Below are positions 3,189-39,263 of a stretch of 64,000 nt of DNA, piece by piece. Position 1 is the first letter of the stretch; the number at the start of each line of letters is the position of its first letter. Source of the stretch: Methanobacteriota archaeon (GTDB lineage: Archaea > Thermoplasmatota > Poseidoniia > Poseidoniales > Thalassarchaeaceae); the NCBI GenBank assembly GCA_002698225.1, contig NZWD01000004.1:20090-84089 (forward strand), given 5' to 3'. Below the pieces are notes generated by a model, which saw only the letters and a list, made by a program, of their open reading frames with translations, was not told where the DNA came from and searched no databases. The position numbers were made by a program, and so were the translations under genes.

Positions 3189-6100
3189 GCGCCCGTGATG
3201 CAGCCAAGATTCCTAAGAGGATTGAGTCAATCAAGTTCAGTTTGATGGATCCCAATGAGATTCGCAAGATGTCGTCAGTAGAGATCAAGACTGCTGACAC
3301 CTACAAGGATGATGGACACGCCTTCAAACAGGGTCTGATGGATCCCAAGATGGGAGTAATTGATCCAGGAATTCGCTGTGAGACCTGTGGCAACAAGCAC
3401 GATGAGTGCCCCAGTCACTTCGGACACATAGCGCTTGAACTACCAATCCTCCATATCGGCTTCACCAACCTAATCAAGACATCATTGAAGTCTACCTGTA
3501 ATACTTGTAGCAATGTGCTTCTGCACAGTTCACCTGAGACTCATCCTCTAGATCCTGAGAAATCTGAGCAGGATTACTATAGGGACCGCGTGCATGATAT
3601 CATGATTAAGCACGGAGTTGGGTCCAGAGAATTCAAGACCATAATCAAGGAGATAGAGAAGGAATGCTCCAGTAAGAAGAGAACTATCTGCATGCATTGC
3701 GGGTCTGAGCAGGGCAAGATTATCCTCGACAAACCTTCCACCTTCAAGGAGAAGAAGGCAGACAAGGGCGAACATAAGCTCAACGCTAGAGACATCAGAG
3801 AGTGGCTTGAGAGAATCCCCGACGAGCACCTAATCTTCCTAGGCATGGACAAGGACTCCAGCCGTCCAGAGTGGACCATCATGAAGGTCCTCCCCGTCCC
3901 TCCGATTACCGTCCGACCTTCAATCACCTTGGATAGCGGCGACCGCTCCGAGGATGACCTAACTCACAAACTCGTGGATGTCCTGAGGATTAATCAACGC
4001 CTACGTGAGAACCGTGACGCCGGCGCGCCACAGTTGATTGTAGAGGATTTGTGGGAACTCCTGCAGTACCACTGCACCACCTACTTCGACAACCAGACTA
4101 GTGGAATTCCTCCTGCAAGACACCGCTCAGGCCGCCCCCTGAAGACGCTTGCACAGCGTCTGAAGGGCAAGGAAGGACGCTTCCGTAGTAACTTGTCCGG
4201 TAAGCGTGTTAACTTCTGCGCTAGAACAGTCATAAGCCCCGATCCGAACCTTGGCATCAATGAGGTAGGGGTACCTGAGAAGACTGCCAAGGAGCTTACA
4301 GTACCTATTCGTGTTACTGGTCGCAATAGAGAGCAGCTGCGTCAGATGATTCTCCGAGGGCCAGATGTCCACCCTGGCGTTAACTACATCATGCGTGGAG
4401 ACAGTTTCAGAGTCAGAATAACTGACCGGACCAAGTACATATGGGCTGGATTCAGGTGCCTCAACCCTGAGTGTGACTCTGGTAGTGAGGATGAGCCATA
4501 TACCGGTTTCAGACCAGATCTCAATGAGGTATTGCCAGCACCCAATTTCCTACCTGGCCTTGAACTAATGAGGCAGAAGAGTCGGAATGCTATAGGAGAT
4601 CTCGAAGAAGAGTGGGGAGTCGACCTCGATGGCACCTTGAACAACCTCAGGGGCGAGGACTCAAGAGGCGCATCATTAGCAGATGACGATTCCAAGGCTA
4701 TCATCCATAACAGGTGGAAGTGGGAACATTCCAACCCTGATGATTTCTTCCCCGACCACCTCGAGGTCCACTGCCCTCACTGTGGCAGTCCTGAGATTGA
4801 AGACGAGTATGGCGGCTCATATCGCACTGAGATAGAAGATAGACTTAGCACCGTCGATAGAGATGGCAACCCCAAGCCAGGAGTGATTGTTGAGAGACAC
4901 CTGATTGATGGCGATGTCGCGATTTTCAATCGACAACCATCACTCCACAGGATGTCTATGATGGTACACGAAATCAGAGTCATGGCCGGCAAGACATTCA
5001 GATTCAATCTGGCAGATTGCACGCCATACAACGCCGACTTCGACGGTGACGAGATGAATCTGCATGTAATTCAGAGCGAGGAGGCCAGAGCAGAGGCCAA
5101 GATTCTGATGCGAGTGCAGGAGCACATCATCACGCCGAGATACGGCGGGAGCGTAATCGGTGGAATCCACGATCACATCTCAGGCGCATATCTCTTGACC
5201 AACGGTAACCGCATTCTGCCCAAGAGTCTCGTACTCGAGATTCTCGGTGCAATCGGTTGGGCAGGAGATCTTCCTGAGGAGGTCGAGAGCAATGGCATGA
5301 TAGGATACCGTGGCACGGATGTCCTTGGCCTAATCGTACCTTCAGGATTCAAGCTCAACTATACCAGCAGAGTAGGCGACGAAGTAACGGTCACGGAAGG
5401 AGATGTCTCTGGTACCATAGACAAGAGGGGAATCGGCGCTGAGGACGGACGCCTGCTCGATGCGGTGGTCCAGACTCACGGCTCGGATGCAGGAGCAGAG
5501 TTCCTCAACCGTATGACCAAGATGACAATCGCGATTTGTACTGCCATGGGCTTCACGACTGGCATAGATGACGAGGACCTACCGCCCGAGGCAAAGGCCG
5601 AAATCATTCAAATCAACGAGAGAGCCAGCCAAGAGGTGGACGATGAGTTGGAGAAGTTCGGCAAGGACGGCCGCAGATATGAGTCTAGACCAGGCCGCAC
5701 TCCATTAGAAACTCTAGAGGAAAACATTCTACAAATTCTAGACAAGGGTAAGGCAGAGTCCGGAGAGGTCGCGAAAGACCATCTTGGCTCAGACAATCCA
5801 GCTGTTATGATGGCTGTATCGGGTGCTAGAGGATCAATGGACAATCTGGCTATGATGGCCGGTTCTATTGGTCAGCCAAAGGTTCGCGGAAAGCGACTTG
5901 AGAGAGGCTATCAAGACCGTGTACTGTCTCACTTCCAGAGGGGCGTCAAGGGGGCCCGAGAGAAGGGATTCGTATCATCTTCGTTCAAGCGCGGCCTCGA
6001 GCCCACTGAGTTCTTCATGCTCTCAGTTTCTGGAAGGGAATCACTCGTTGACACTGCAGTAAGGACTAGCAAGTCTGGTTACATGCAGAGACGACTCATC

Positions 6101-7857: not shown

Positions 7858-8154
7858 ATGGACATTGCAAGACATTTGAAGCAGGGAATGAGTACAGGTA
7901 GGATTGTCTTCGGGCAACGCCAGACTAGAAGCGCTTGTGCAAATGGCGACGCCAGATTGGTCGTCGTCGCAGCAAACTGCCCCCCTGACTACATCACAAC
8001 TCTTTCTGAGAGCCATCCTGATGTCCCTGTTCACCAGGTGCCTTTGGTTAATGGCCAGTTAGGCGCAGCCTGCGCAAAACCCTTCCCAGTCAGTGCGCTT
8101 TGCATTATTGACCCCGGCCAGAGTGACCTGTTATCACTATCATCCAACGTTTGA
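7858..8154 (+). CDS. rpl30e: 50S ribosomal protein L30e
   Basis: 98-aa protein with the L30e signature 'GRIVFG...ARLVVVAANCP'. It sits in the canonical position after rpoA''. Confidence 0.85.
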   Translation: MDIARHLKQGMSTGRIVFGQRQTRSACANGDARLVVVAANCPPDYITTLSESHPDVPVHQVPLVNGQLGAACAKPFPVSALCIIDPGQSDLLSLSSNV

Positions 8155-9169
8155 TCATCAAACCCTTGGGATTGACTTCCCTGCACTTGCGCCAAGCGCT
8201 CTATTCAAGTCCGTCTTACCATCGGCTAACAATGTGGATGGCACTGTCAGAGACCTGTTAGCGGCCCGAGATGTAGTGCTCTCGCCGTCAGAAATACAGA
8301 GGATTCACGGTTTTAATTGCATAGGAATCGCCGAGAAGATCCCCGATCTATCTCTAACCTCGTCCTCACAGGTGCATGTTTGGCACATCACTGACGACCT
8401 TTACCCAGTGACCCCCTCAGAGGTTGAGAGGTGGATGGTAGATGCCCCCCCTGGTAAGCACTGGATTTTGAGTGAGAGGGAATTCGACTCATCACTCATT
8501 GAACAGTCAAATTCTCTGGAAGTAGTAGTTTGGGGGCCAGAGAGGATGGCGAGTTGGATTGGAGAGTCAGTACTATCAGGTGAACTGGGGACATTTCTTC
8601 AAACAGAGGAAGAGATCGAATCTCCTGTAATTAATATTGAGAATGCCTCTTCTGAGAACCAAACTGTGCGAACGCTCAGACCACTCGTCGAACTCAACAA
8701 TTGGTTGGAGCAGAGAGGCTGGGATGGCGCTAGAACCTCACCCGTGCTCCTATCTGCACGTTTATGGGATATTACGGGCACCCTTACGGGTCCGGATGAC
8801 CAGCCAGAGTCTGGGAATTGGCAAATAATTGAGGACCCGTGGGCTTCAACATACCAGATACACGAGGCTGAGCAGGTGTTGGGGAAATCTCCAGCTCTCA
8901 GGATAATGAAGCCCTCCTCTGGCTGGATGGCTGAGCGCGATAGTTTGCCTTCGGAAATGCTCAAACTGGCAGATCAGCGCAGACAGGGAGAGCCTGAGAC
9001 CAATGATGACGAGGTTAGCAGTATCATGCTTGAGTGGTGGAGGCTAGACCAATCTTCTGTCCAGGCCGAATTCTCTCAGTTAACAATTCCTGGATGGATC
9101 ATTTATCTCGAGGGCAATGAGTCGAAGTTGCTACATGGTAGAAACGGTAGACTGTACGAGTTCGATTAG
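8093..9169 (+). CDS. hypothetical protein in the position normally held by nusA; true start uncertain, possibly the internal ATG near 8435
   Basis: Long ORF whose 5' end overlaps the end of L30e in another frame. No KH/GXXG motifs, so it is not NusA-like, and no family is recognised. It ends tail-to-tail against the minus-strand gene at 9170. Confidence 0.4.
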   Translation: MRFALLTPARVTCYHYHPTFDHQTLGIDFPALAPSALFKSVLPSANNVDGTVRDLLAARDVVLSPSEIQRIHGFNCIGIAEKIPDLSLTSSSQVHVWHITDDLYPVTPSEVERWMVDAPPGKHWILSEREFDSSLIEQSNSLEVVVWGPERMASWIGESVLSGELGTFLQTEEEIESPVINIENASSENQTVRTLRPLVELNNWLEQRGWDGARTSPVLLSARLWDITGTLTGPDDQPESGNWQIIEDPWASTYQIHEAEQVLGKSPALRIMKPSSGWMAERDSLPSEMLKLADQRRQGEPETNDDEVSSIMLEWWRLDQSSVQAEFSQLTIPGWIIYLEGNESKLLHGRNGRLYEFD

Positions 9170-10048
9170 TCAATTCCTGCGCAAAGCCATCAGTTCGTCA
9201 GTAGACAGTGTGTCTCCCGACATCAGCCTGGACATCAGATCCGTGACTTCGAGCTTCTCCTCATCGCCCGCGTCTTCTGACTTCTTATCTCTGGAATCCA
9301 TGGCTCTCATCATGTCCACGATGGAATGAATACACCTCAGAGAGACGATATATTGTGAGTGCAATGCATCCGCCTCTCTTTTGGATTTGTTCAACTCTCC
9401 ATGTGCTGAGTTTGCCTTCTCCCTGAGCCTATCAACCTCTTCAGACAATTCCACCATTAGGTCATGAGACTCCTGCGCTCTTCCAACTGAAATCTCAACG
9501 GATTTGTGAGCTTCCTCCTGTGAGGCCTCGGCAACTCTGACAGCATCCTTCAGTTCCCTCATTCCGCCACCGCCTCTCTCTTTCTCCGCGCTTTTTAGCG
9601 CCTCTGAGAGTTGCTTCATTTTCTTGTGATAATCGCGCTCTCTCTTGCCTAGGAACTGGCCGGTCATATACTGTTTTTCTAGCCTCTCCATGTCCGACCT
9701 TATCTTGCCTGGAGGGGGGCCTCTTGAACGCTTAGAGTTGGCTCCAGAATCTCCTTGCTCAGCGAGTTTTTCCCTGAGTTCATCACGAACCAACTTGAGA
9801 TGCTTAGATTTTTCAGCACGAATTTCCTTCAGTTCCTTGACTCTGCTATTGATTTCATCCCTAACGGACTTCTGTGACTGGACCTCATTGATGAGCTCCT
9901 TTACTTGACGATTAACCTCATTTCTCTCGTCTAGGTGTTGTCTTACCTCTGCATTCCAATGGTCTCTCTCGTCCTTGTTCAATTCGGACTTCTGGACCAT
10001 AGTCTCAGATAGTGGCTGGAGAATAAGCCGGACTTCGTCAAATTCCAC
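9170..10048 (-). CDS. coiled-coil protein, paralog 1 (COG1340-like archaeal coiled-coil family, assignment tentative)
   Basis: 292 aa, highly charged with strong heptad character ('ERNEVNRQVKELINEVQSQKSVRDEINSRVKELKEIRAEK'), and a Gly-rich break in the middle. Confidence 0.6.
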   Translation of the reverse strand: MEFDEVRLILQPLSETMVQKSELNKDERDHWNAEVRQHLDERNEVNRQVKELINEVQSQKSVRDEINSRVKELKEIRAEKSKHLKLVRDELREKLAEQGDSGANSKRSRGPPPGKIRSDMERLEKQYMTGQFLGKRERDYHKKMKQLSEALKSAEKERGGGGMRELKDAVRVAEASQEEAHKSVEISVGRAQESHDLMVELSEEVDRLREKANSAHGELNKSKREADALHSQYIVSLRCIHSIVDMMRAMDSRDKKSEDAGDEEKLEVTDLMSRLMSGDTLSTDELMALRRN

Positions 10049-10108
10049 TATCTCACCTCATCGCCCTCGAACAGGATTCCTCATTTAGGCGTGATGGAAG
10101 CGTCGATG

Positions 10109-11086
10109 CTACTCATCAACCTCCCTCTTAGCGGCGAGAGAACCTCTGCGAGCACCACCTCTAGTGACACCTAGACGCATACCCTTACGCTTCGTCCTCT
10201 TATGTTCAGACTCGACCTTGGATGACGATGACTCATCTTTCGACTCAGTTAGTTCACTCAACTTGGCAGAGCCCAGAAGTGTCTCTAGTTCACTGACATC
10301 CAGAGTACCGCCAGTTTGAGCTCTCTCCTTGATGTCTGATAGCTTGATTGGTCGGCCACCTATGGTGGTTGCCTTCTGGTAGGTCTTGACTCTTCCCAGA
10401 CTGCTCCTTATCTGCTTTCTTTCGGACTTGAGGCGATCTAGTTGCTTGTCTATCTTGCTTATTCTCTTGCTGATTTTCCTGATTTCCGATCTAGATATTC
10501 CGGATTGACTATCAGACTCATCAGATTCTCCTTGTTCGGAGTTTGTTGCAGATTTCTTCGTCTCGTCGAGTTGTGAAGTGATTTCACGCATTCGCTTTAT
10601 CTGCTTGACATATTCCTTGTGAAAACTCTCAGATTCACCTTTCATTGCAATTGCAGACTGCAACTCAAAGAATCGTGAGAAGGAATCCAATTCCCTGGCG
10701 AGAGTTGGAACAGTAGTGAGGTCATTATCTAGGGTAGTCAGTCTACTATGAGTATCGCTCAACCATTCGCATAGTACCTCGATAGGAGGGGGAATTCTAC
10801 TATTCACCTCATCTCTCCCTCTACGGGCTTTATCCGCAGCCTTCCTGACAGAATGGAATTTCCCCAGCAAGACCCTCCTTGCACCACTCACCTGCTCCAT
10901 CTCGCCAACAGCGGTACGAATTGAGCGAACTAGGCTGACTTGATTGCGACGCTCGCCACGCAAGTCTGAATGCTGCCTCTCAACGGATTTTAGATTTCGA
11001 TCTAAGTCCTTTCTCATTCCCTCGATTTCAAAATGATCCATTTCCTCCAAATCTTCGAAGTGTCTAGAGTCAGGAGATTTACTCAT
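10109..11086 (-). CDS. coiled-coil protein, paralog 2
   Basis: 325 aa with the same charged heptad-repeat composition and a C-terminal basic/Gly tail 'KRTKRKGMRLGVTRGGARRG'. It lies in tandem with the neighbouring paralogs. Confidence 0.6.
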   Translation of the reverse strand: MSKSPDSRHFEDLEEMDHFEIEGMRKDLDRNLKSVERQHSDLRGERRNQVSLVRSIRTAVGEMEQVSGARRVLLGKFHSVRKAADKARRGRDEVNSRIPPPIEVLCEWLSDTHSRLTTLDNDLTTVPTLARELDSFSRFFELQSAIAMKGESESFHKEYVKQIKRMREITSQLDETKKSATNSEQGESDESDSQSGISRSEIRKISKRISKIDKQLDRLKSERKQIRSSLGRVKTYQKATTIGGRPIKLSDIKERAQTGGTLDVSELETLLGSAKLSELTESKDESSSSKVESEHKRTKRKGMRLGVTRGGARRGSLAAKREVDE

Positions 11087-11910
11087 TCCTCTTCACCTTC
11101 CCGTACCTGGGCCGATCCAGTCTTCCGACTACGGGCGAAAGATGACCTTCCTCCTGAGGAAACCCTGTTGCTGGCCGCCATTAGATCACGGAATCCGCCT
11201 CCCAACTCGCCGAATCCACTTTCCATTCTCTTTTGCCAGTGCTCGATGGCCGCATCAGACTGCTCAAAGAGCTCTCGTGCCCGGTCCATCTGTCTGCGAA
11301 TCTCGCGTAATTCTGCGGTCAGCAAGACCTTCTTATCATGCAGTGGTTGAGCCTTTGATACCGCTTCTAGCATCTTACTGTGAGCCCCATCTGCTTTACG
11401 ATATGACGATACCATATCCCTTCTGGAGTCTATGAATCTAGACATTTCCGGATTAGCATCCCTCCTCGATTTGAGCCATTTTTCGTTCTCCCCAAGGAGC
11501 TTCTTCCTACGGTCCAGAAGCTTTCTCTCCGATCGGTGATCCAGTGCCGAAGTCTGAATCTTATCTTCGATTTCCTCGAGTTCATCAAGCAACTTCTCCT
11601 TCTTCCAATTAGGATCTAGGTTGACCATGCCTCCTGTCTTAATCAGACTGTCTCTGGAATCCTTGACATCTCTGAGTAATTTCGTTGCCTTACTCTGCGA
11701 TAGATTCCTCTCTTCTTTGTACTTGGCGACCATGCCGTTAGCCTTGCGATGAGACTCAACAGCCCTTTTGACTCGTGGCTCTAGAGATTCCTCCTCAGCT
11801 TCGAGATTTCTGATGACGTTGGGGAGCTCTTGTTTGAGCACTTCGCGCCTTACTAGTAGGGCCTGCGCTAACTGCTCCGGACCTATCGCTAACAGCTCGT
11901 CGACCTCCAT
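11083..11910 (-). CDS. coiled-coil protein, paralog 3
   Basis: 275 aa of charged coiled-coil sequence. It overlaps paralog 2 by 4 nt (translational coupling) and ends with a Gly/Ser-rich tail. Confidence 0.6.
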   Translation of the reverse strand: MEVDELLAIGPEQLAQALLVRREVLKQELPNVIRNLEAEEESLEPRVKRAVESHRKANGMVAKYKEERNLSQSKATKLLRDVKDSRDSLIKTGGMVNLDPNWKKEKLLDELEEIEDKIQTSALDHRSERKLLDRRKKLLGENEKWLKSRRDANPEMSRFIDSRRDMVSSYRKADGAHSKMLEAVSKAQPLHDKKVLLTAELREIRRQMDRARELFEQSDAAIEHWQKRMESGFGELGGGFRDLMAASNRVSSGGRSSFARSRKTGSAQVREGEEE

Positions 11911-11940
11911 GGCGTCCGGGGCACAGGAGAATCTGCATTA

Positions 11941-11959
11941 AAGGTCACTATGTGACCTT
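11941..11959. promoter_or_regulatory. perfect 19-bp palindrome AAGGTCAC-TAT-GTGACCTT; candidate operator in a divergent promoter region
   Basis: Read directly from the sequence: an 8-3-8 inverted repeat sitting 45 bp upstream of the 12004 start codon. It lies between divergently transcribed coiled-coil genes (minus strand) and an operon that contains a DtxR-family regulator. Confidence 0.4.
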
Positions 11960-12003
11960 GGAAAGGGGTTTCCTTCATACATCGAATAACTACTAGGTGT
12001 ACG

Positions 12004-13560
12004 ATGGTTTACCGGGCACCAGCCAGCAGGGCGCTACTCGCAATCCTGTTTTCTCTATCTTTGCTAGCATCTCCTGTATCCGCAGATGGGGAGAAGATGT
12101 TCACGCCGGCTGGCTCTTCAGATGTAGCCATCTCTGGAGAGCCGATTCATGTTGGAGATGCTGTATTAGTATCAATTTTGGTCCATAATCAGGGCTCTGA
12201 GTCAGGATCTGTGAGGTTGGAGCTCACTGGCTCCGGCGGTGAAAATCTATCAGTAGGAACAGAGACTGAAATCAACCCCGGCTCTAGCAGGGAGGTCATT
12301 GCTGAATTCACTCCCTCGATTGCAGGACTGATGGATGTCAATTGGGAAGTGACCAGCGATGATGGAGGAGTCTCATCAGAACTCAAAGGAACATTTGAAC
12401 TCCAAGTAATAGAGAGCCAGTCTATATCTCTCACATTTGAATCGACAGTATGGACTCTGTCCGACGGTCTTGAATGCGATTTCACAATCACCCTTTCTGA
12501 AGGCAAATCCCGTCTAATTGAGGTATCCATCTCGTTACTTGGATCAGGAGAATCTACGATAGTGCAGAATTTCGAAATCTTACTGAACCCCGGCGTCCGT
12601 TCTTTGGAAGCATCCCTGGGGCAACCAGATATTACTGGGATTTCAATCACCGTGTCTGCCAAGGGATGGGGAATCGCCAATTCTCCTGCTAACCTCTCAT
12701 GGGACAATCCTGTATCTCCCCCCGTAGTATCGCCCTCAGTTTCAATTGGCCCCTATCAGCCCGAGTCTCCTAAGCCCGGAGACACCATATCAATGGATTA
12801 TACCCTTGCAAATTCGGGCGACTCCTCAACTCTACCAGGTACGCTGAGTTTCATCAGCAACTCTGATGGAGGGATGATTCTAGCTCAGATACCAGTCTCA
12901 GCAATCTCGGCAGGAGGATCTTCATCTGGCACAATAAGCATAGGTCCGTGGCCAGACTCTCGGGTGGTCGAGGCAGAATTAATCTGGTCTATGGCTGGTT
13001 CTTCGGCCATCAGCCCCCTCTCAATCTCCTCTGACATGCCTACAGATACGGGCCTAGAGCTACCCTTCGATGTCATGGCTGCAATCTATGGTGCCATAGT
13101 CGGTTTTGCCGTGGTCCTAGTTGGATTAATCGTACTAAGGGCAGTCTCTGAGCGCACCCCTAGCACTGAGTCTGAGGATAGTGTGCTTAGAGAATCGCGC
13201 ATATCTATGAGACAGGAGTCGTCGTCAGAGAAAATTGAGGTTCCATGCCCGAGTTGCCAGCAGAGACTCAAGATTCCATTTTCTCACTCGGGGATGGTCA
13301 AATGCCCAGCCTGCAACAGTCAATTCCATACTTCTCCTCCTGAAGAAACGGAGAAATCTCAATCAAACCCTCCCAGTCAATCTGGTCCCGAGCCGGCAAC
13401 TCAATCCGATACCGCTTCTTCGATTGCCACCGTGGTATCTTCAGAGGATGAGCTCCCATGTCCCGAGTGCCAGCAGATGCTCAGAATACCAATAGATAGG
13501 AGACCAGTGCACTCTAGGTGCCCGGCGTGCAGGACCGAATTCCTGGCTGAAGTAGGGTGA
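12004..13560 (+). CDS. single-pass membrane protein with extracellular CARDB-like beta-sandwich repeats and cytoplasmic tandem zinc ribbons
   Basis: N-terminal signal peptide 'LLAILFSLSLLASPVSA'. CARDB-like segments ('HVGDAVLVSILVHNQGSESGSVRLEL'). One TM helix ('AAIYGAIVGFAVVLVGLIVL'). Two C-terminal CPxC...CPxC zinc ribbons ('CPSCQQ...CPACNSQF', 'CPECQQ...CPACRTEF'). Confidence 0.7.
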   Translation: MVYRAPASRALLAILFSLSLLASPVSADGEKMFTPAGSSDVAISGEPIHVGDAVLVSILVHNQGSESGSVRLELTGSGGENLSVGTETEINPGSSREVIAEFTPSIAGLMDVNWEVTSDDGGVSSELKGTFELQVIESQSISLTFESTVWTLSDGLECDFTITLSEGKSRLIEVSISLLGSGESTIVQNFEILLNPGVRSLEASLGQPDITGISITVSAKGWGIANSPANLSWDNPVSPPVVSPSVSIGPYQPESPKPGDTISMDYTLANSGDSSTLPGTLSFISNSDGGMILAQIPVSAISAGGSSSGTISIGPWPDSRVVEAELIWSMAGSSAISPLSISSDMPTDTGLELPFDVMAAIYGAIVGFAVVLVGLIVLRAVSERTPSTESEDSVLRESRISMRQESSSEKIEVPCPSCQQRLKIPFSHSGMVKCPACNSQFHTSPPEETEKSQSNPPSQSGPEPATQSDTASSIATVVSSEDELPCPECQQMLRIPIDRRPVHSRCPACRTEFLAEVG

Positions 13561-13564
13561 TATT

Positions 13565-14221
13565 ATGATTGAGTTGAGCGAGTTCGAGGAGATGTATCTG
13601 AAAAGACTCTTCGAGGCCCATGCAGACGACCCCGCAATGATTGTGAAGACGACTAAACTGGCCGAAATGATGGATGTGAGTCCGGCTTCAACCACTGAGA
13701 TGATTCAGAGGCTCGCCAAGCGTAATCTAGTCACCCACGTACCCTACAAAGGCTGTAGACTGACTCCAGAAGGCTTTCAGCAGGCTGCGATGATTAAGCG
13801 CAGAGAAGGGCTGATAGAGATACTTCTTACTGAGGTAATCGGATATGAGGGAAGTGTCAATGAGGCTGCCTGTAAAATTGAGCATGCAATCGATGAGGAG
13901 TTAGAAATTGCCCTAGATCGCATGCTCGGTTACCCTGAGAAGACCCCTAGCGGCGACAGAATACCAGTCATAGAGAGACAAATTGAACCTATGCGAACTG
14001 GGCTACTAATTCCTCTCAGTGCGCTACCGATAGGTAGCAAGGCTACCATTGAGCTGATTGTCATGCGACCAACCGATTCACGTACAGTCGAGTTAGCCGG
14101 ACTTGGGGTTGGGACTGAGGTTGAGTCAAAGAGCGATGGAATCTACTCCTCAAATCAAAAGTTGGAGATGTCAAAATCAATGTCCCTGAGAATCCTCGCT
14201 AGGACCGAGCAGGTGATGTAA
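13565..14221 (+). CDS. DtxR/MntR-family metal-dependent transcriptional regulator with a C-terminal FeoA/SH3-like domain
   Basis: N-terminal winged HTH, a dimerisation helix carrying conserved metal ligands ('ACKIEH' = Cys/Glu/His of the DtxR primary site), and a C-terminal SH3-like domain. There is a 5-nt gap to the upstream gene. Confidence 0.8.
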   Translation: MIELSEFEEMYLKRLFEAHADDPAMIVKTTKLAEMMDVSPASTTEMIQRLAKRNLVTHVPYKGCRLTPEGFQQAAMIKRREGLIEILLTEVIGYEGSVNEAACKIEHAIDEELEIALDRMLGYPEKTPSGDRIPVIERQIEPMRTGLLIPLSALPIGSKATIELIVMRPTDSRTVELAGLGVGTEVESKSDGIYSSNQKLEMSKSMSLRILARTEQVM

Positions 14222-15780
14222 TGGAGAACCAAGAAGATCTTGATTCTCTGGCCGATTCAATCGGTGATGTAGTTCTGCCAGCGCCGGAAATTCAAAATCA
14301 AGCCCCGATTGTTTCCGTTGAGAATGATAGAAGCAAGGACAGAATCAAACTACTTCGCTCCAGAGAGGAGATGCTACTGAGAATCGACAGAATGCTAATC
14401 AGCAGCGGAGCGAGATTAGTCCTCTTCCTGCCCCTAGTCGTGATTATTCTATACGGGCTTGCACAGGCGTTCTCGCAAGGTGACCCAGAATGGTGGACAA
14501 ACCACTTGGAATCTGTGGCTTGGGGCTCAGATATCTCCACTGCAATATACGGGCTTTCAATGCTGATGCTGATTGCAGATTCAGCAATGCTACTCTTGCT
14601 GTTCTGGCTCATGTCAATTACTCGATCAATCTTCTCAATGGAATCGAGTGAATTGACTAGGCTGGGCCTGACCTTCAAGAGCTCACATGGGTACGCTGAG
14701 ATGAGGGCCACGATTGATGGCGCCATCAGACAACTGGGTATCACAACGGCCCTAATTTCTCTTGCTGCGATATTGCTCGGAATCTCAATGTGGCTCCCTG
14801 AGGACAGCGCAGGAACGCCATTCATGCTCGCACTCTCAACTGGAGCCTTGCTCAGCGGCCACGGTGTGCACATGGTCTCAGAACGCTCTAGATTCAACAC
14901 TAGCGAGCCGTGGGGTATGCTGCAAGCCTTCTCACCGCCAATTCATCCCGCTCTGCTGAACCGCCCATTCACCGATGTAATTCGCGCACATGTCGACCCT
15001 CTGTTAGCAGTCAGGATGTCAGAGTACCTCTCTTCCATAGAACCCTCGATTAAGGAAGGCAGCAGTGTGAGGGAGTTGCAAGAGACTCTTCTACATCTAC
15101 TGTATCTCCGAAGATCTTCACTAATCGATGAGGATCTGTTCAGATCTGCTCTAGAGCCCATGCTCGATCCCCCAGCCATTGAGCGCCTGTTCAACCATCC
15201 AGAACTAGGCGAAGAGACATGGGATAGACTTCTATCAAGAGCACGCTCTCAATGCGCGCCTTTCTTCCGTATCCATGATCGCTTGAGGATGAGCAGGTCG
15301 GCTACCGAATCTACCGGCGAAGTCTGGCTGGATGTGGACATGGAGAACTTAGTAGTCGGTCAGGCCAACCTATTCGCATTTGTATTAAATCAAGGAGAAT
15401 CTCCACTGGATTTGGTACTTAGAGTCCAGACTCCAGATTTCAGACCCCAGGAATGTGTTTATCGGTTGAATGCAGAACCAATGAGGGTTGACTCCGAACC
15501 TGTCGGAGATGAACTCTACTCGGCTTTACCCGCGCTGATGTCCTCTACTCGGATAATCTGGCAGAGCTTGCTGCCTTCTGCCATGGGTGAGGCTACAGTT
15601 ACACTACGACTCGAGGACGAGGCTGGGAACCTAATTTCGGGGAGAGTATTGGCTGTTCAGGTACGCCCTGATTTGCTGACCCGGGTTAGAATGTCTCTTG
15701 GAGGATTGTTCATGTTCGGAGCAGCAATCGTAGTCATCTCACCATTTGTACCATTCCTGATCAATCTAGTAGGACTTTGA
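14221..15780 (+). CDS. polytopic membrane protein, hypothetical
   Basis: Its start overlaps the regulator stop (ATGTAATGG). Four to five N-terminal TM helices, a ~300-aa soluble domain and a C-terminal TM helix. No family recognised. Confidence 0.55.
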   Translation: MENQEDLDSLADSIGDVVLPAPEIQNQAPIVSVENDRSKDRIKLLRSREEMLLRIDRMLISSGARLVLFLPLVVIILYGLAQAFSQGDPEWWTNHLESVAWGSDISTAIYGLSMLMLIADSAMLLLLFWLMSITRSIFSMESSELTRLGLTFKSSHGYAEMRATIDGAIRQLGITTALISLAAILLGISMWLPEDSAGTPFMLALSTGALLSGHGVHMVSERSRFNTSEPWGMLQAFSPPIHPALLNRPFTDVIRAHVDPLLAVRMSEYLSSIEPSIKEGSSVRELQETLLHLLYLRRSSLIDEDLFRSALEPMLDPPAIERLFNHPELGEETWDRLLSRARSQCAPFFRIHDRLRMSRSATESTGEVWLDVDMENLVVGQANLFAFVLNQGESPLDLVLRVQTPDFRPQECVYRLNAEPMRVDSEPVGDELYSALPALMSSTRIIWQSLLPSAMGEATVTLRLEDEAGNLISGRVLAVQVRPDLLTRVRMSLGGLFMFGAAIVVISPFVPFLINLVGL

Positions 15781-15819: not shown

Positions 15820-16800
15820 GTGTCTGAAGACGGCTCTATCCAGAGTGATGACCTCAGGACCAGGCTGCACGCAATGGAGACTAAATTGCGTAGGATGCGT
15901 GAGCAGAGGGGCAATCACAACGAGAACGCCAAGAGGGCTGCGGATTCGAGAGACTCTGTGCAGAACCAGGGCAAGGAGCTAAGGGAACGAATCGGAGAGA
16001 GATTAGAGGCCCAGAAGGAAGTCAGAACTAGGGCCAAAACACATCAGGCCAAGCGTGACGAGATTCAGAAGCAGATTGGTGAATTAATCTCCCAGAAGAG
16101 AGGTAGGAAGAGAGATGGCGGGACCAAGTCAGTCGTGATTCAACTATCAGAGACCATTGGAGAGATTGATCGAATAGAGAACCAGATTATGACTGATGGA
16201 AACCTATCTCTCAAGAAGGAAAACCGCTTACTGAAGAAACTAAAAACTCTGATTTCGAAGAGGGACGAGTTAATGCCCGAGGTTCAGGAACTACAAGTCA
16301 TTGAAATCGATCTAGGCGATATGGAGGGCTCAATCCAACTTCTCCGTTCTGAGGCTGACGCTGAGCACAAAGCGATGCTTGAAGCCAACAAGGAGGCTGA
16401 TGAGATATGGGAAGAAGTCAAGCCAATGCTCGAGGAACGTGATTTCCTCAGAGCGGAGGGCGATAGGCTCCACGCTGCATTTGTCTCATCTAGAGAATCT
16501 GCAGACAATGTCCACTCTGGCATTAAGGAATTGTTAGATCAGGTCAATGAGATTCGTGATGAACTGAAGGCTCAGAGAGAGGAGAGAGAGCGGATTATCA
16601 GGGAACATAACGAATCTGTGAGAATGGCTACCAAGACTCCGGATGAAGACGAAGAGTTAGCCGACTCACTAACTGAGCAACTACTAGAGAGTGGCTCCAT
16701 CACTCTGGGTGGTACCAGGGCAGAAATCTCCGAGAGAGAATCTCCCCGCAAAAGGAAGAAGTCACGCAGACTGGGAACAACTAGGGGCAAGCGGGACTGA
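15820..16800 (+). CDS. coiled-coil protein, paralog 4
   Basis: 326 aa of charged heptad-repeat protein similar in composition to the three minus-strand paralogs, with a basic C-terminal tail 'PRKRKKSRRLGTTRGKRD'. Confidence 0.6.
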   Translation: MSEDGSIQSDDLRTRLHAMETKLRRMREQRGNHNENAKRAADSRDSVQNQGKELRERIGERLEAQKEVRTRAKTHQAKRDEIQKQIGELISQKRGRKRDGGTKSVVIQLSETIGEIDRIENQIMTDGNLSLKKENRLLKKLKTLISKRDELMPEVQELQVIEIDLGDMEGSIQLLRSEADAEHKAMLEANKEADEIWEEVKPMLEERDFLRAEGDRLHAAFVSSRESADNVHSGIKELLDQVNEIRDELKAQREERERIIREHNESVRMATKTPDEDEELADSLTEQLLESGSITLGGTRAEISERESPRKRKKSRRLGTTRGKRD

Positions 16801-38137: not shown

Positions 38138-38156
38138 AGCAGCGCATCCCTAAGGG

Positions 38157-39263
38157 ATGCGTCCGAGCAACGGTTATGAGACTCCGACCGACGAGGTCAT
38201 ACCGGTAGTTATGCGAGGAGCGCTGTCCAAGGCTTCGGTATGCTTGGTAATCTTGACCCTTCTAGCATTGCCAGCGTTTGGGATGAGCAACGGACCCGCT
38301 GCGCTCAATGGCAATGAAGAGTCTACTGTGAAGTATGGGTGCTCGTGCCACAATAACGGGGCGCCATCAGAGAGAGTTATCGTGATGATAACAGGAGTTC
38401 CGGTGATGTATGAGACAGATGTTTCCTATTCACTCACCATCACAGTGGCCGACTCTCTGACTCTTTCTGGAGGAGATGGTAACACTAAGGCAGGATTTCT
38501 ACTCTCATCTGGTGGTGTCGGTGCATTTTCATGGTCTGATGACCAAGATCTCAGGCAAGCAGAGGATGCACCAGAAGATGTTTCTCACTCAGAAATCGAT
38601 TCTGACGGAGTATGGGTATTGACTTGGACCTCTCCTTCAGAAGATGTCGGAAATGTCAACTTCTGGCTCGCCGGGAATTCCGTAGACGGAGGGGGGTTGA
38701 ATGACGAGACTGACTACTGGAACCTCCTAGCCTTCTCGATCAGCCCACCTGGAACTATCGTCTCAGGTGATGATGCTGCTACTCTTGAGACTAGAACCAT
38801 CTCTGTTGGAGATTACGACACCCTGTTCGTGATCGAGGAGTCAGCGGCCCAAAAGGAGGCCGAACGTCAGGCTGCATTGGCACTAAGCATCTATCGACAG
38901 GGTAACGCTCTGTACTGGACCAGTTTAGTCGCCCTGCTTGTCGGGGCTGTATTTCAGAGGGAAGTACTGGAGAGGCGCTATGGAGATGGTCCAGAGTACC
39001 TTGCCATGGAACTGGCATATCCGCAGGCTATCCGCAGGAGTCTTCTCAGTATTGCGTCCTTTGTAATAGGGGTCCGATGGTTGTCGTCCGACGCCGCAAT
39101 CTCATTCCCTCCTGCTAGCATCGTCGAAGAAGGGACTCGCGTTACTAATCTCACTGGATTCCTAATCGGTTGTGCTTTCTTCCTCAGTGCTTGGGCGGCA
39201 TACGGAGTTTACCGTACAATACTAGCTACTAGGGTCGAGCCTGATGTCAAGGACATCCTCTGA
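38157..39263 (+). CDS. secreted/membrane protein, hypothetical
   Basis: Signal peptide, a Cys cluster 'YGCSCHNNG', a soluble beta-rich domain and C-terminal TM helices. Confidence 0.45.
   Translation: MRPSNGYETPTDEVIPVVMRGALSKASVCLVILTLLALPAFGMSNGPAALNGNEESTVKYGCSCHNNGAPSERVIVMITGVPVMYETDVSYSLTITVADSLTLSGGDGNTKAGFLLSSGGVGAFSWSDDQDLRQAEDAPEDVSHSEIDSDGVWVLTWTSPSEDVGNVNFWLAGNSVDGGGLNDETDYWNLLAFSISPPGTIVSGDDAATLETRTISVGDYDTLFVIEESAAQKEAERQAALALSIYRQGNALYWTSLVALLVGAVFQREVLERRYGDGPEYLAMELAYPQAIRRSLLSIASFVIGVRWLSSDAAISFPPASIVEEGTRVTNLTGFLIGCAFFLSAWAAYGVYRTILATRVEPDVKDIL

Follow-up and report, generated by a model that had tools for sequence, protein, structure and literature searches.

Genome organization of the divergent locus

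The 64,000-nucleotide stretch of Thalassarchaeaceae DNA analysed here (the window) includes a short spacer between two divergently transcribed gene clusters, and within that spacer lies a perfect palindrome upstream of an operon that encodes a DtxR-family metalloregulator. The question raised by this arrangement is whether the palindrome is an operator and, if so, which protein reads it. The features concerned are as follows, with window coordinates and strand.

9170..10048, minus strand: leftward gene 3, 292-aa DUF7121 coiled-coil protein (PF23435, 4.2e-12)
10109..11086, minus strand: leftward gene 2, 325-aa coiled-coil protein, with a 4-bp overlap with leftward gene 1
11083..11910, minus strand: leftward gene 1, 275-aa coiled-coil protein, whose orthologue is called DUF7121 in relatives
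11937..11942, minus strand: putative TATA box TTTAAT of the leftward operon, -32 to -27 from the ATG at 11910
11941..11959, no strand: candidate operator palindrome, AAGGTCAC-TAT-GTGACCTT, perfect 8-3-8
11943..11957, no strand: constrained symmetric core GGTCAC-TAY-GTGACC (6-3-6), perfect in 50 of 59 genomes
11965..11980, plus strand: putative BRE/TATA-like element of the rightward operon, GGGGTTTCCTTCATAC, a conserved block
12004..13560, plus strand: rightward gene 1, 518-aa CARDB/zinc-ribbon-like protein (CARDB 8.3e-08)
13565..14221, plus strand: DtxR-family metalloregulator, 218 aa, candidate binder, starting 4 nt past the preceding stop
14221..15780, plus strand: 519-aa membrane protein of no known family, its start overlapping the regulator's stop codon
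15820..16800, plus strand: DUF7121-like coiled-coil protein, the fourth paralogue, which may close the rightward operon

A scan of the regulator protein against species-representative genomes yielded 80 loci, all of them from Marine Group IIb (MGIIb; Thalassarchaeaceae, Poseidoniales), with the nearest relatives of the regulator in Ca. Thalassarchaeum at 90% identity. All 80 loci share an identical gene order, with three coiled-coil genes transcribed leftwards and the genes for the CARDB protein, the DtxR-family protein, the 519-aa membrane protein and a further coiled-coil protein transcribed rightwards; pdxS, on the opposite strand, is next after the fourth coiled-coil gene. The DtxR operon is flanked in 80/80 of these MGIIb loci by four paralogous DUF7121-type coiled-coil genes (9170-11910 and 15820-16800 in the window). 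Deeper lineages keep a core of this arrangement, consisting of a DUF7121 gene followed divergently by genes for a large membrane protein, the DtxR-family protein and a DUF7121 protein; where the 519-aa membrane protein is absent from these lineages (L222-L230), the DUF7121 gene directly follows the DtxR gene. A 358-aa open reading frame with no Pfam or NCBIfam match (8093-9169) separates the coiled-coil cluster from the rpoB-rpoA1-rpoA2-L30e block.

The 275-aa coiled-coil protein has no significant Pfam match, NCBIfam searches with the coiled-coil and membrane proteins gave generic coiled-coil noise only, and the 519-aa membrane protein, syntenic in the 80 loci, belongs to no family that we could name. 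The N-terminus of the 518-aa protein resembles a signal peptide. The protein also contains a CARDB domain and a single hydrophobic helix, and its two C-terminal CxxC...CxxC motifs have weak zinc-ribbon Pfam matches; from these features a membrane topology is predicted. Its N-terminal part is variable, and the protein ranges from 518 to ~900 aa among clades. It might act with the cotranscribed regulator as a pair that signals from membrane to DNA. Genes for metal transport, storage or homeostasis are found neither in the operons nor among the 46 Pfam-scanned window proteins, whose genes lie before 50841.

A perfect palindrome in the divergent spacer

The palindrome at 11941-11959 is a perfect 19-bp inverted repeat and was recovered with the same sequence and coordinates as in the first-pass annotation, which had also described a 93-bp divergent spacer and a distance of about 45 bp to the start codon. 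The spacer between the minus-strand ATG at 11910 and the plus-strand ATG at 12004 is indeed 93 bp long, and 44 nt lie between the palindrome and the latter. The geometry of the palindrome falls within that of DtxR/IdeR/MntR operators, which are inverted repeats of ~17-21 bp with a 1-4 bp spacer, and, like family operators located at the regulator's own promoter, the palindrome occupies the sole spacer upstream of the operon containing the regulator.

By itself, an 8-3-8 palindrome is not above chance. Perfect palindromes with arms of 8 nt and spacers of 0-8 nt number 18 in the 64-kb window (13 of them distinct and the rest nested), and Markov shuffles lead one to expect 11.5 +/- 4.1. The palindrome pattern allowing up to three mismatches occurs once in the window versus 0.33 expected, and at least one match was present in 30 of 100 shuffles. 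Because perfect 8-3-8 repeats are not rare in 64 kb, the evidential weight of this one lies in its location and its conservation; the repeat per se is not significant, and a chance origin is rejected on conservation alone.

Another perfect 8-3-8 palindrome, CGCATCCC-TAA-GGGATGCG, is present at 38143-38161; it begins 6 nt past the stop codon of pntB and extends over the start codon (ATG) of the gene that follows. It is similar to the CGCTCCC-TAA-GGGAGCG palindrome of the rpoE' promoter in one other lineage (L215; see below).

Predicted promoter geometry

The putative TATA box of the leftward operon, TTTAAT, shares its bases 11941-11942 with the first two of the palindrome. In every clade, those without the palindrome included, an element of the form W-TAAA-G/A occupies a constant position 27-32 nt from the ATG of the leftward operon; a leaderless archaeal mRNA would have its TATA box at this distance, and the element is predicted to be one. 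On the rightward side the GGGGTTTCCTTCATAC block is kept both in the palindrome-bearing clade and in the clade without the palindrome, and the TTCAT within it begins at -30 from the ATG at 12004. Sequences of the form TT[CG]A[TA] are found 21-30 nt upstream of eight window start codons versus 1.7 expected, with six of the eight at -29/-30, and TTCATAG aligns with CTTATAC, CTTATAG and CTTAAAT at an orthologous promoter in other MGII genomes; because of this enrichment and this alignment, the TTCAT element is read as TATA-like. Window examples of TT[CG]A[TA] upstream of starts are at 11974, 27051, 44497 and 54829. These patterns suggest that mRNAs in this MGIIb archaeon are mostly leaderless and that its promoters use a TATA-like element of the TTCATAC type.

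Relative to the two start codons, the palindrome spans -31 to -49 of the leftward promoter and -45 to -63 of the rightward one, and it ends 5 bp before the rightward GGGG and 14 bp upstream of the TTCATAC at 11974. It would thereby cover the edge of the leftward TATA box and the whole of the expected BRE position. With both flanking genes pointing away from it, the palindrome cannot be a terminator.

Conservation and the nature of the constraint

Conservation was assessed in 59 species-level MGIIb genomes with the same gene order (58 species-representative loci and the window). The perfect 19-mer, with either TAT or TAC at its center, is present in 40 of the 59, and the perfect 15-bp core GGTCAC-TAY-GTGACC, which is the best-conserved stretch of the spacer, in 50. 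Mean information content per position is 1.81 bits for the palindrome and 1.87 bits for the core, compared with 0.5-0.9 bits for the flanking spacer. The palindrome is 29-32 nt from the leftward start codon in all 59 genomes, and the site holds across locus G+C contents of 0.35-0.60 and DtxR identities down to 49% relative to the window's protein. The first-pass annotation had made its operator proposal depend on conservation at orthologous promoters, where the site is nearly invariant.

The variation that does occur is informative as to what is constrained. The left arm and the TA preceding it are invariant save for one G-to-T variant (three genomes), and the outer AA of this arm is fixed because it belongs to the leftward TATA box. 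The TT at the outer end of the right arm is free to vary among the 59 genomes, so that the constrained symmetric unit is 6-3-6. The arm variants GTTCAC, GCGACC, CTGACC and GTGGCA are each one-sided; there are no compensatory changes among the 14 distinct variants, and six of the eight pairs depart from symmetry solely through unpaired, one-sided changes. One-sided, uncompensated variants argue for a sequence that is read by a protein and not for a hairpin under structural selection.

We therefore regard as very improbable the reading of the palindrome as an RNA hairpin, either in a 5' leader or in a small RNA. A 61-nt region containing it does fold well (MFE -18.2 kcal/mol, z-score -2.6), but the conserved TATA-like elements place both start sites outside the palindrome, none of the 14 variants is a double change such as covariation would produce, and an Rfam search of the region gave no match at E <= 10. 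The hairpin was rejected on these grounds, its stable fold notwithstanding, and the terminator on the orientation of the genes given above.

A structural role at the DNA level, as a cruciform or similar element of the bidirectional promoter, or a role as an extended BRE-like core-promoter element read by TFB, fits the overlap of the left arm with the TATA box and the expected BRE position, as well as the persistence of GNRACC-TTTA where clades lack the palindrome; across lineages, moreover, palindromes found at similar places in promoters stay symmetric as their arms differ. Such an element is nevertheless improbable, given that the sequence is fixed in the 59 genomes with one-sided changes tolerated and uncompensated, and that the motif is absent from other window promoters. 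It is also insufficient to account for the site, because the distal arm, situated outside any BRE, is conserved as strongly as the proximal arm.

Taking location and conservation together, we conclude that the palindrome is very probably an operator for a transcription factor within an archaeal promoter that serves both directions, and that its placement could block assembly of the basal machinery on the leftward coiled-coil operon and possibly tune the regulator's operon.

Further copies and the rpoE' promoter

The first-pass annotation had proposed that additional copies of the motif in this genome and its relatives would define a regulon, and no regulon emerged: the window contains one copy, the 80 orthologous loci (~1 Mb) contain none at other positions, and a search of those loci for a second site with up to two mismatches gave 15 matches, the same number as in shuffled sequences. 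The single copy also bears on another reading of the dyad, as an origin recognition box. Archaeal ORB elements consist of a dyad followed by a G-string and recur several times near orc1/cdc6, on either side of an AT-rich unwinding element; the palindrome with the adjacent GGAAAGGGG is superficially ORB-like in its layout. The 93-bp spacer has no AT-rich unwinding element, however, no Orc1/Cdc6 gene is present among the window genes scanned, and there is no skew inflection beyond gene-strand effects. An origin box is accordingly the least credible of the readings considered, so improbable that we rejected it on the single copy, the lack of Orc1/Cdc6 among the scanned window genes and the lack of a skew signal.

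Metagenomes were scanned with the pattern BNNGGTCACTAYGTGACC, which was built to leave out the orthologous site. There were at least 120 matches, mostly in unrelated DNA, and one (L109) was traced to MGIIb among the matches listed. A recurring match is a coding stretch (EGHYVTN) on high-G+C contigs, which may be part of a ribosomal-protein gene; the other matches listed apart from L109 were singletons in unrelated DNA, and viral contigs contained two unrelated matches. The MGIIb match is a perfect core, GGTCACATAGTGACC, at L109:815-829, in the divergent promoter between the gene for a secreted FG-GAP/CARDB protein of ~1,900 aa and rpoE'-spt4-S24e; NCBI lists a protein 100% identical to the rpoE' product of this contig under a Thalassarchaeaceae genome. 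A sister species has the same core between differing flanks, and the core is present in L202 and L203 as well as in L109. In a tree of Rpo7 the L109 lineage branches outside the palindrome-bearing clade, and a contig from the same metagenome with compatible G+C content (L230) is possibly the DtxR locus of that lineage.

The perfect palindromes at the divergent rpoE' promoter are lineage-specific and have an AT-rich spacer of 3 bp. Ca. T. betae and the L051 genome have the present palindrome at the DtxR locus and CAGACC-N3-GGTCTG at the rpoE' promoter, where the latter is also found in L204/L205 and L209/L211; other palindromes at this promoter are CGCTCCC-TAA-GGGAGCG (L215) and ATGACCCCC-TAC-GGGGGTCAT (L212). 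The variety of 3-bp-spaced palindromes in MGIIb suggests that several factors read palindromes of this type, and hence that the gene for the protein binding the present one could lie elsewhere.

In every MGII lineage sampled, a GC-rich element of ~90 nt lies between a TATA-like box and rpoE' (L109:860-960, L202:~3860-3960, and upstream of rpoE' in L204, L206, L209, L212 and L215). It contains ...GGTCGGTCGSC...CCTCTCCTCYRGAGGC...GCCGATGAGGGACGGG..., has no Rfam match at E <= 1, and looks like a structured small RNA or 5' leader.

The adjacent DtxR-family regulator as candidate binder

The product of 13565-14221 contains both DtxR-family domains (PF01325 at 1.2e-14 and PF02742 at 1.5e-17), in agreement with the DtxR-type assignment made from the sequence at first pass, and its PDB matches are DtxR, IdeR, ScaR and SloR. 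It had been described as encoded two genes downstream of the palindrome, which is loosely put, its gene being second in the rightward operon. Its M10, C103, E106 and H107 align with the primary-site residues M10, C102, E105 and H106 of DtxR, and these primary metal-site ligands are conserved in all clades; a Met/Cys ligand set is the iron type in DtxR and IdeR. Of the DtxR ancillary residues, H79 is replaced by E, E83 is kept, and H98 is replaced by N. As to a C-terminal SH3/FeoA-like domain, the window's regulator has no FeoA match in Pfam, and PF04023 is precomputed for some orthologues. The protein scores below every NCBIfam equivalog cut-off.

The adjacent DtxR-family protein is the sole recognizable DNA-binding protein encoded in the conserved cluster, and its gene is in the operon downstream of the palindrome promoter in 80/80 loci and in the deeper lineages. 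The palindrome may be the operator of a dimeric winged-helix regulator, with the adjacent metalloregulator as the foremost candidate, an assignment to which we give even chances. The GGTCAC and GTGACC half-sites are centered 9 bp apart, about one helical turn, a spacing that would let a dimer contact both on the same side of the helix. Since the site overlaps the TATA edge and the position of the BRE, the TFB-binding element, a bound dimer would be expected to block assembly of TBP and TFB and so to repress the leftward coiled-coil operon, and occupancy of the same site could tune the regulator's own rightward operon (autoregulation). The model joins a predicted binder, sign of regulation and metal to the predicted TATA/BRE assignments and leaderless transcription.

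Changes in the regulator itself accompany changes in the site. The palindrome is missing from ten low-G+C genomes, which in a neighbor-joining tree of three neighboring proteins form one clade nested inside the palindrome-bearing genomes. The recognition helix in these ten carries I47L and a change of Q48 to I, T, S or N in 10/10, and E45Q in 5/10; E45 and Q48 are invariant in all 59 genomes that keep the palindrome. A deep lineage with the helix ...ASEMLKRL has a different 7-3-7 palindrome, CGTTGGC-TAC-GCCAACG, right after an ATAAAGG TATA box at the same promoter spot. A local autoregulator would produce just such a pattern, with an operator that varies by lineage in a promoter from which one and the same regulator is always expressed. 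These co-changes of helix and operator amount to two or three independent evolutionary events, which is very few.

It is also possible, if doubtful, that the palindrome is a genuine operator read by another transcription factor encoded elsewhere, with the DtxR-family protein an unrelated neighbor or simply the product of a regulated gene. The same 15-bp core at the rpoE' promoter of another lineage, in two sister species and with no regulator gene nearby, fits such a factor, as do the wider repertoire of 3-bp-spaced palindromes at that promoter and the dissimilarity of the palindrome to known DtxR boxes. Lineages with a similar recognition helix and no site point the same way: an E-M-(I/V)-Q-R-L helix is retained, without the palindrome at the same position, in contig L230 and the MGIIb-P clade. 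A factor from elsewhere does not, however, readily explain why the clade that lost the palindrome also has an altered recognition helix in the neighboring regulator or why the deep lineage alters helix and palindrome at the same spot, and the conserved cluster offers no DNA-binding protein besides the DtxR-family one.

Within 120 nt of the leftward start codon, the MGIIb-P clade (L070, L071, L075-L077, L079 and L080) has inverted repeats of its own. One, GCGGAACC-N3-GGTTCCGC, separates the TATA box of the leftward operon from its ATG, and another, CATGACC-N3-GGTCATG, spans the start codon on the rightward side, where synonymous variation is absent from codons 2, 4 and 5.

With respect to the adjacent regulator as binder, the autoregulation proposed at first pass gains from adjacency, geometry and the clade-level co-changes of helix and operator, and loses from a box unlike characterized ones, the lack of a regulon and the similar-helix lineages without the site. 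The accompanying proposal, that the divergent coiled-coil genes are possibly co-regulated, fares better as far as position goes, since the palindrome directly adjoins their TATA box.

A conserved module in Marine Group IIb archaea

Marine Group II archaea, which abound in surface seawater, have so far escaped cultivation. A literature search on Marine Group II with DtxR returned nothing relevant and no description of MGII transcription factors or promoters. A strongly conserved cis-element with an obvious candidate regulator provides a testable regulator-operator pair in these abundant uncultured archaea, along with a working picture of MGIIb promoters in which leaderless geometry is combined with a TTSAW-type TATA-like element ~30 nt upstream of starts. 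It also flags a conserved gene module whose regulation should be traceable in metatranscriptomes.

In the sampled MGIIb lineages this module comprises four DUF7121 coiled-coil proteins, the CARDB/zinc-ribbon membrane protein and the unclassified membrane protein. A more speculative proposal, which we hold to be rather unlikely as it stands, is that the DtxR-family protein is not a regulator of metal transport but the switch of this module. Recruitment of the same operator core elsewhere, to the promoter of the ~1,900-aa surface protein, belongs with that reading. If true, it would place cell-envelope or cytoskeleton-like genes under metal-responsive control in one of the most abundant planktonic archaeal groups.

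Comparison with characterized DtxR-family operators

Several DtxR-family regulators have defined operators, among them archaeal examples. TroR of Haloferax volcanii binds TTTAGGC-NNN-CCTAAA, an operator defined by ChIP-seq, and targets iron uptake and storage genes; SirR of Haloferax binds the promoter of its own gene and regulates itself (PMC10783522). The present site resembles that of TroR in the presence of an archaeal DtxR-family regulator, in being a semi-palindrome of 17-19 bp with a 3-bp spacer, and in its location upstream of the core promoter. It differs in its unrelated half-site, GGTCAC versus TTTAGGC, and in its neighboring genes, which encode coiled-coil and membrane proteins and are not iron genes; TroR binding was established by ChIP-seq, whereas the operator here is predicted from sequence.

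MDR1 of Archaeoglobus represses its own transcription and has the consensus GTT-N8,9-AAC (PMC3074139). As here, an archaeal DtxR homologue is encoded in an operon whose promoter bears the operator, and repression acts, or in our case would act, through the basal transcription machinery. The GTT-N8,9-AAC consensus is absent from the present site. The MDR1 operator is reportedly positioned differently from this one, which lies on and upstream of the BRE/TATA of a divergent pair, and MDR1 is said to be linked to a metal ABC transporter, of which there is none here.

The IdeR/DtxR box is 19 bp long, TTAGGTTAGGCTAACCTAA (PMC8464063). The palindrome shares with it the 19-bp length and an AGGT...ACCT pattern, and the regulator keeps a Met10/Cys102/Glu105/His106-type site. 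The AGGT and ACCT are 9 bp apart here, however, and 7 bp apart in the DtxR/IdeR box, and the four CCTAA repeats that accommodate two offset dimers are lacking; the regulator differs from DtxR in having E and N for H79 and H98, and a Glu at the position of the base-contacting Gln43. When the palindrome was compared by eye with TTAGGTTAGGCTAACCTAA, TTTAGGC-N3-CCTAAA, TTTwGA-N4-TCwAAA and GTT-N8,9-AAC, only AGGT/ACCT was found in common, and at a different spacing. The first-pass comparison with DtxR/IdeR/MntR operators, described there as ~19-bp palindromes of which some have AGGT..ACCT-like half-sites, thus stands as to length, short spacer and position, and falls short as to the AGGT/ACCT spacing and the match to any characterized box. 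As such, the palindrome would represent an operator of an already known class, with its pairing to the adjacent metalloregulator as the specific candidate.
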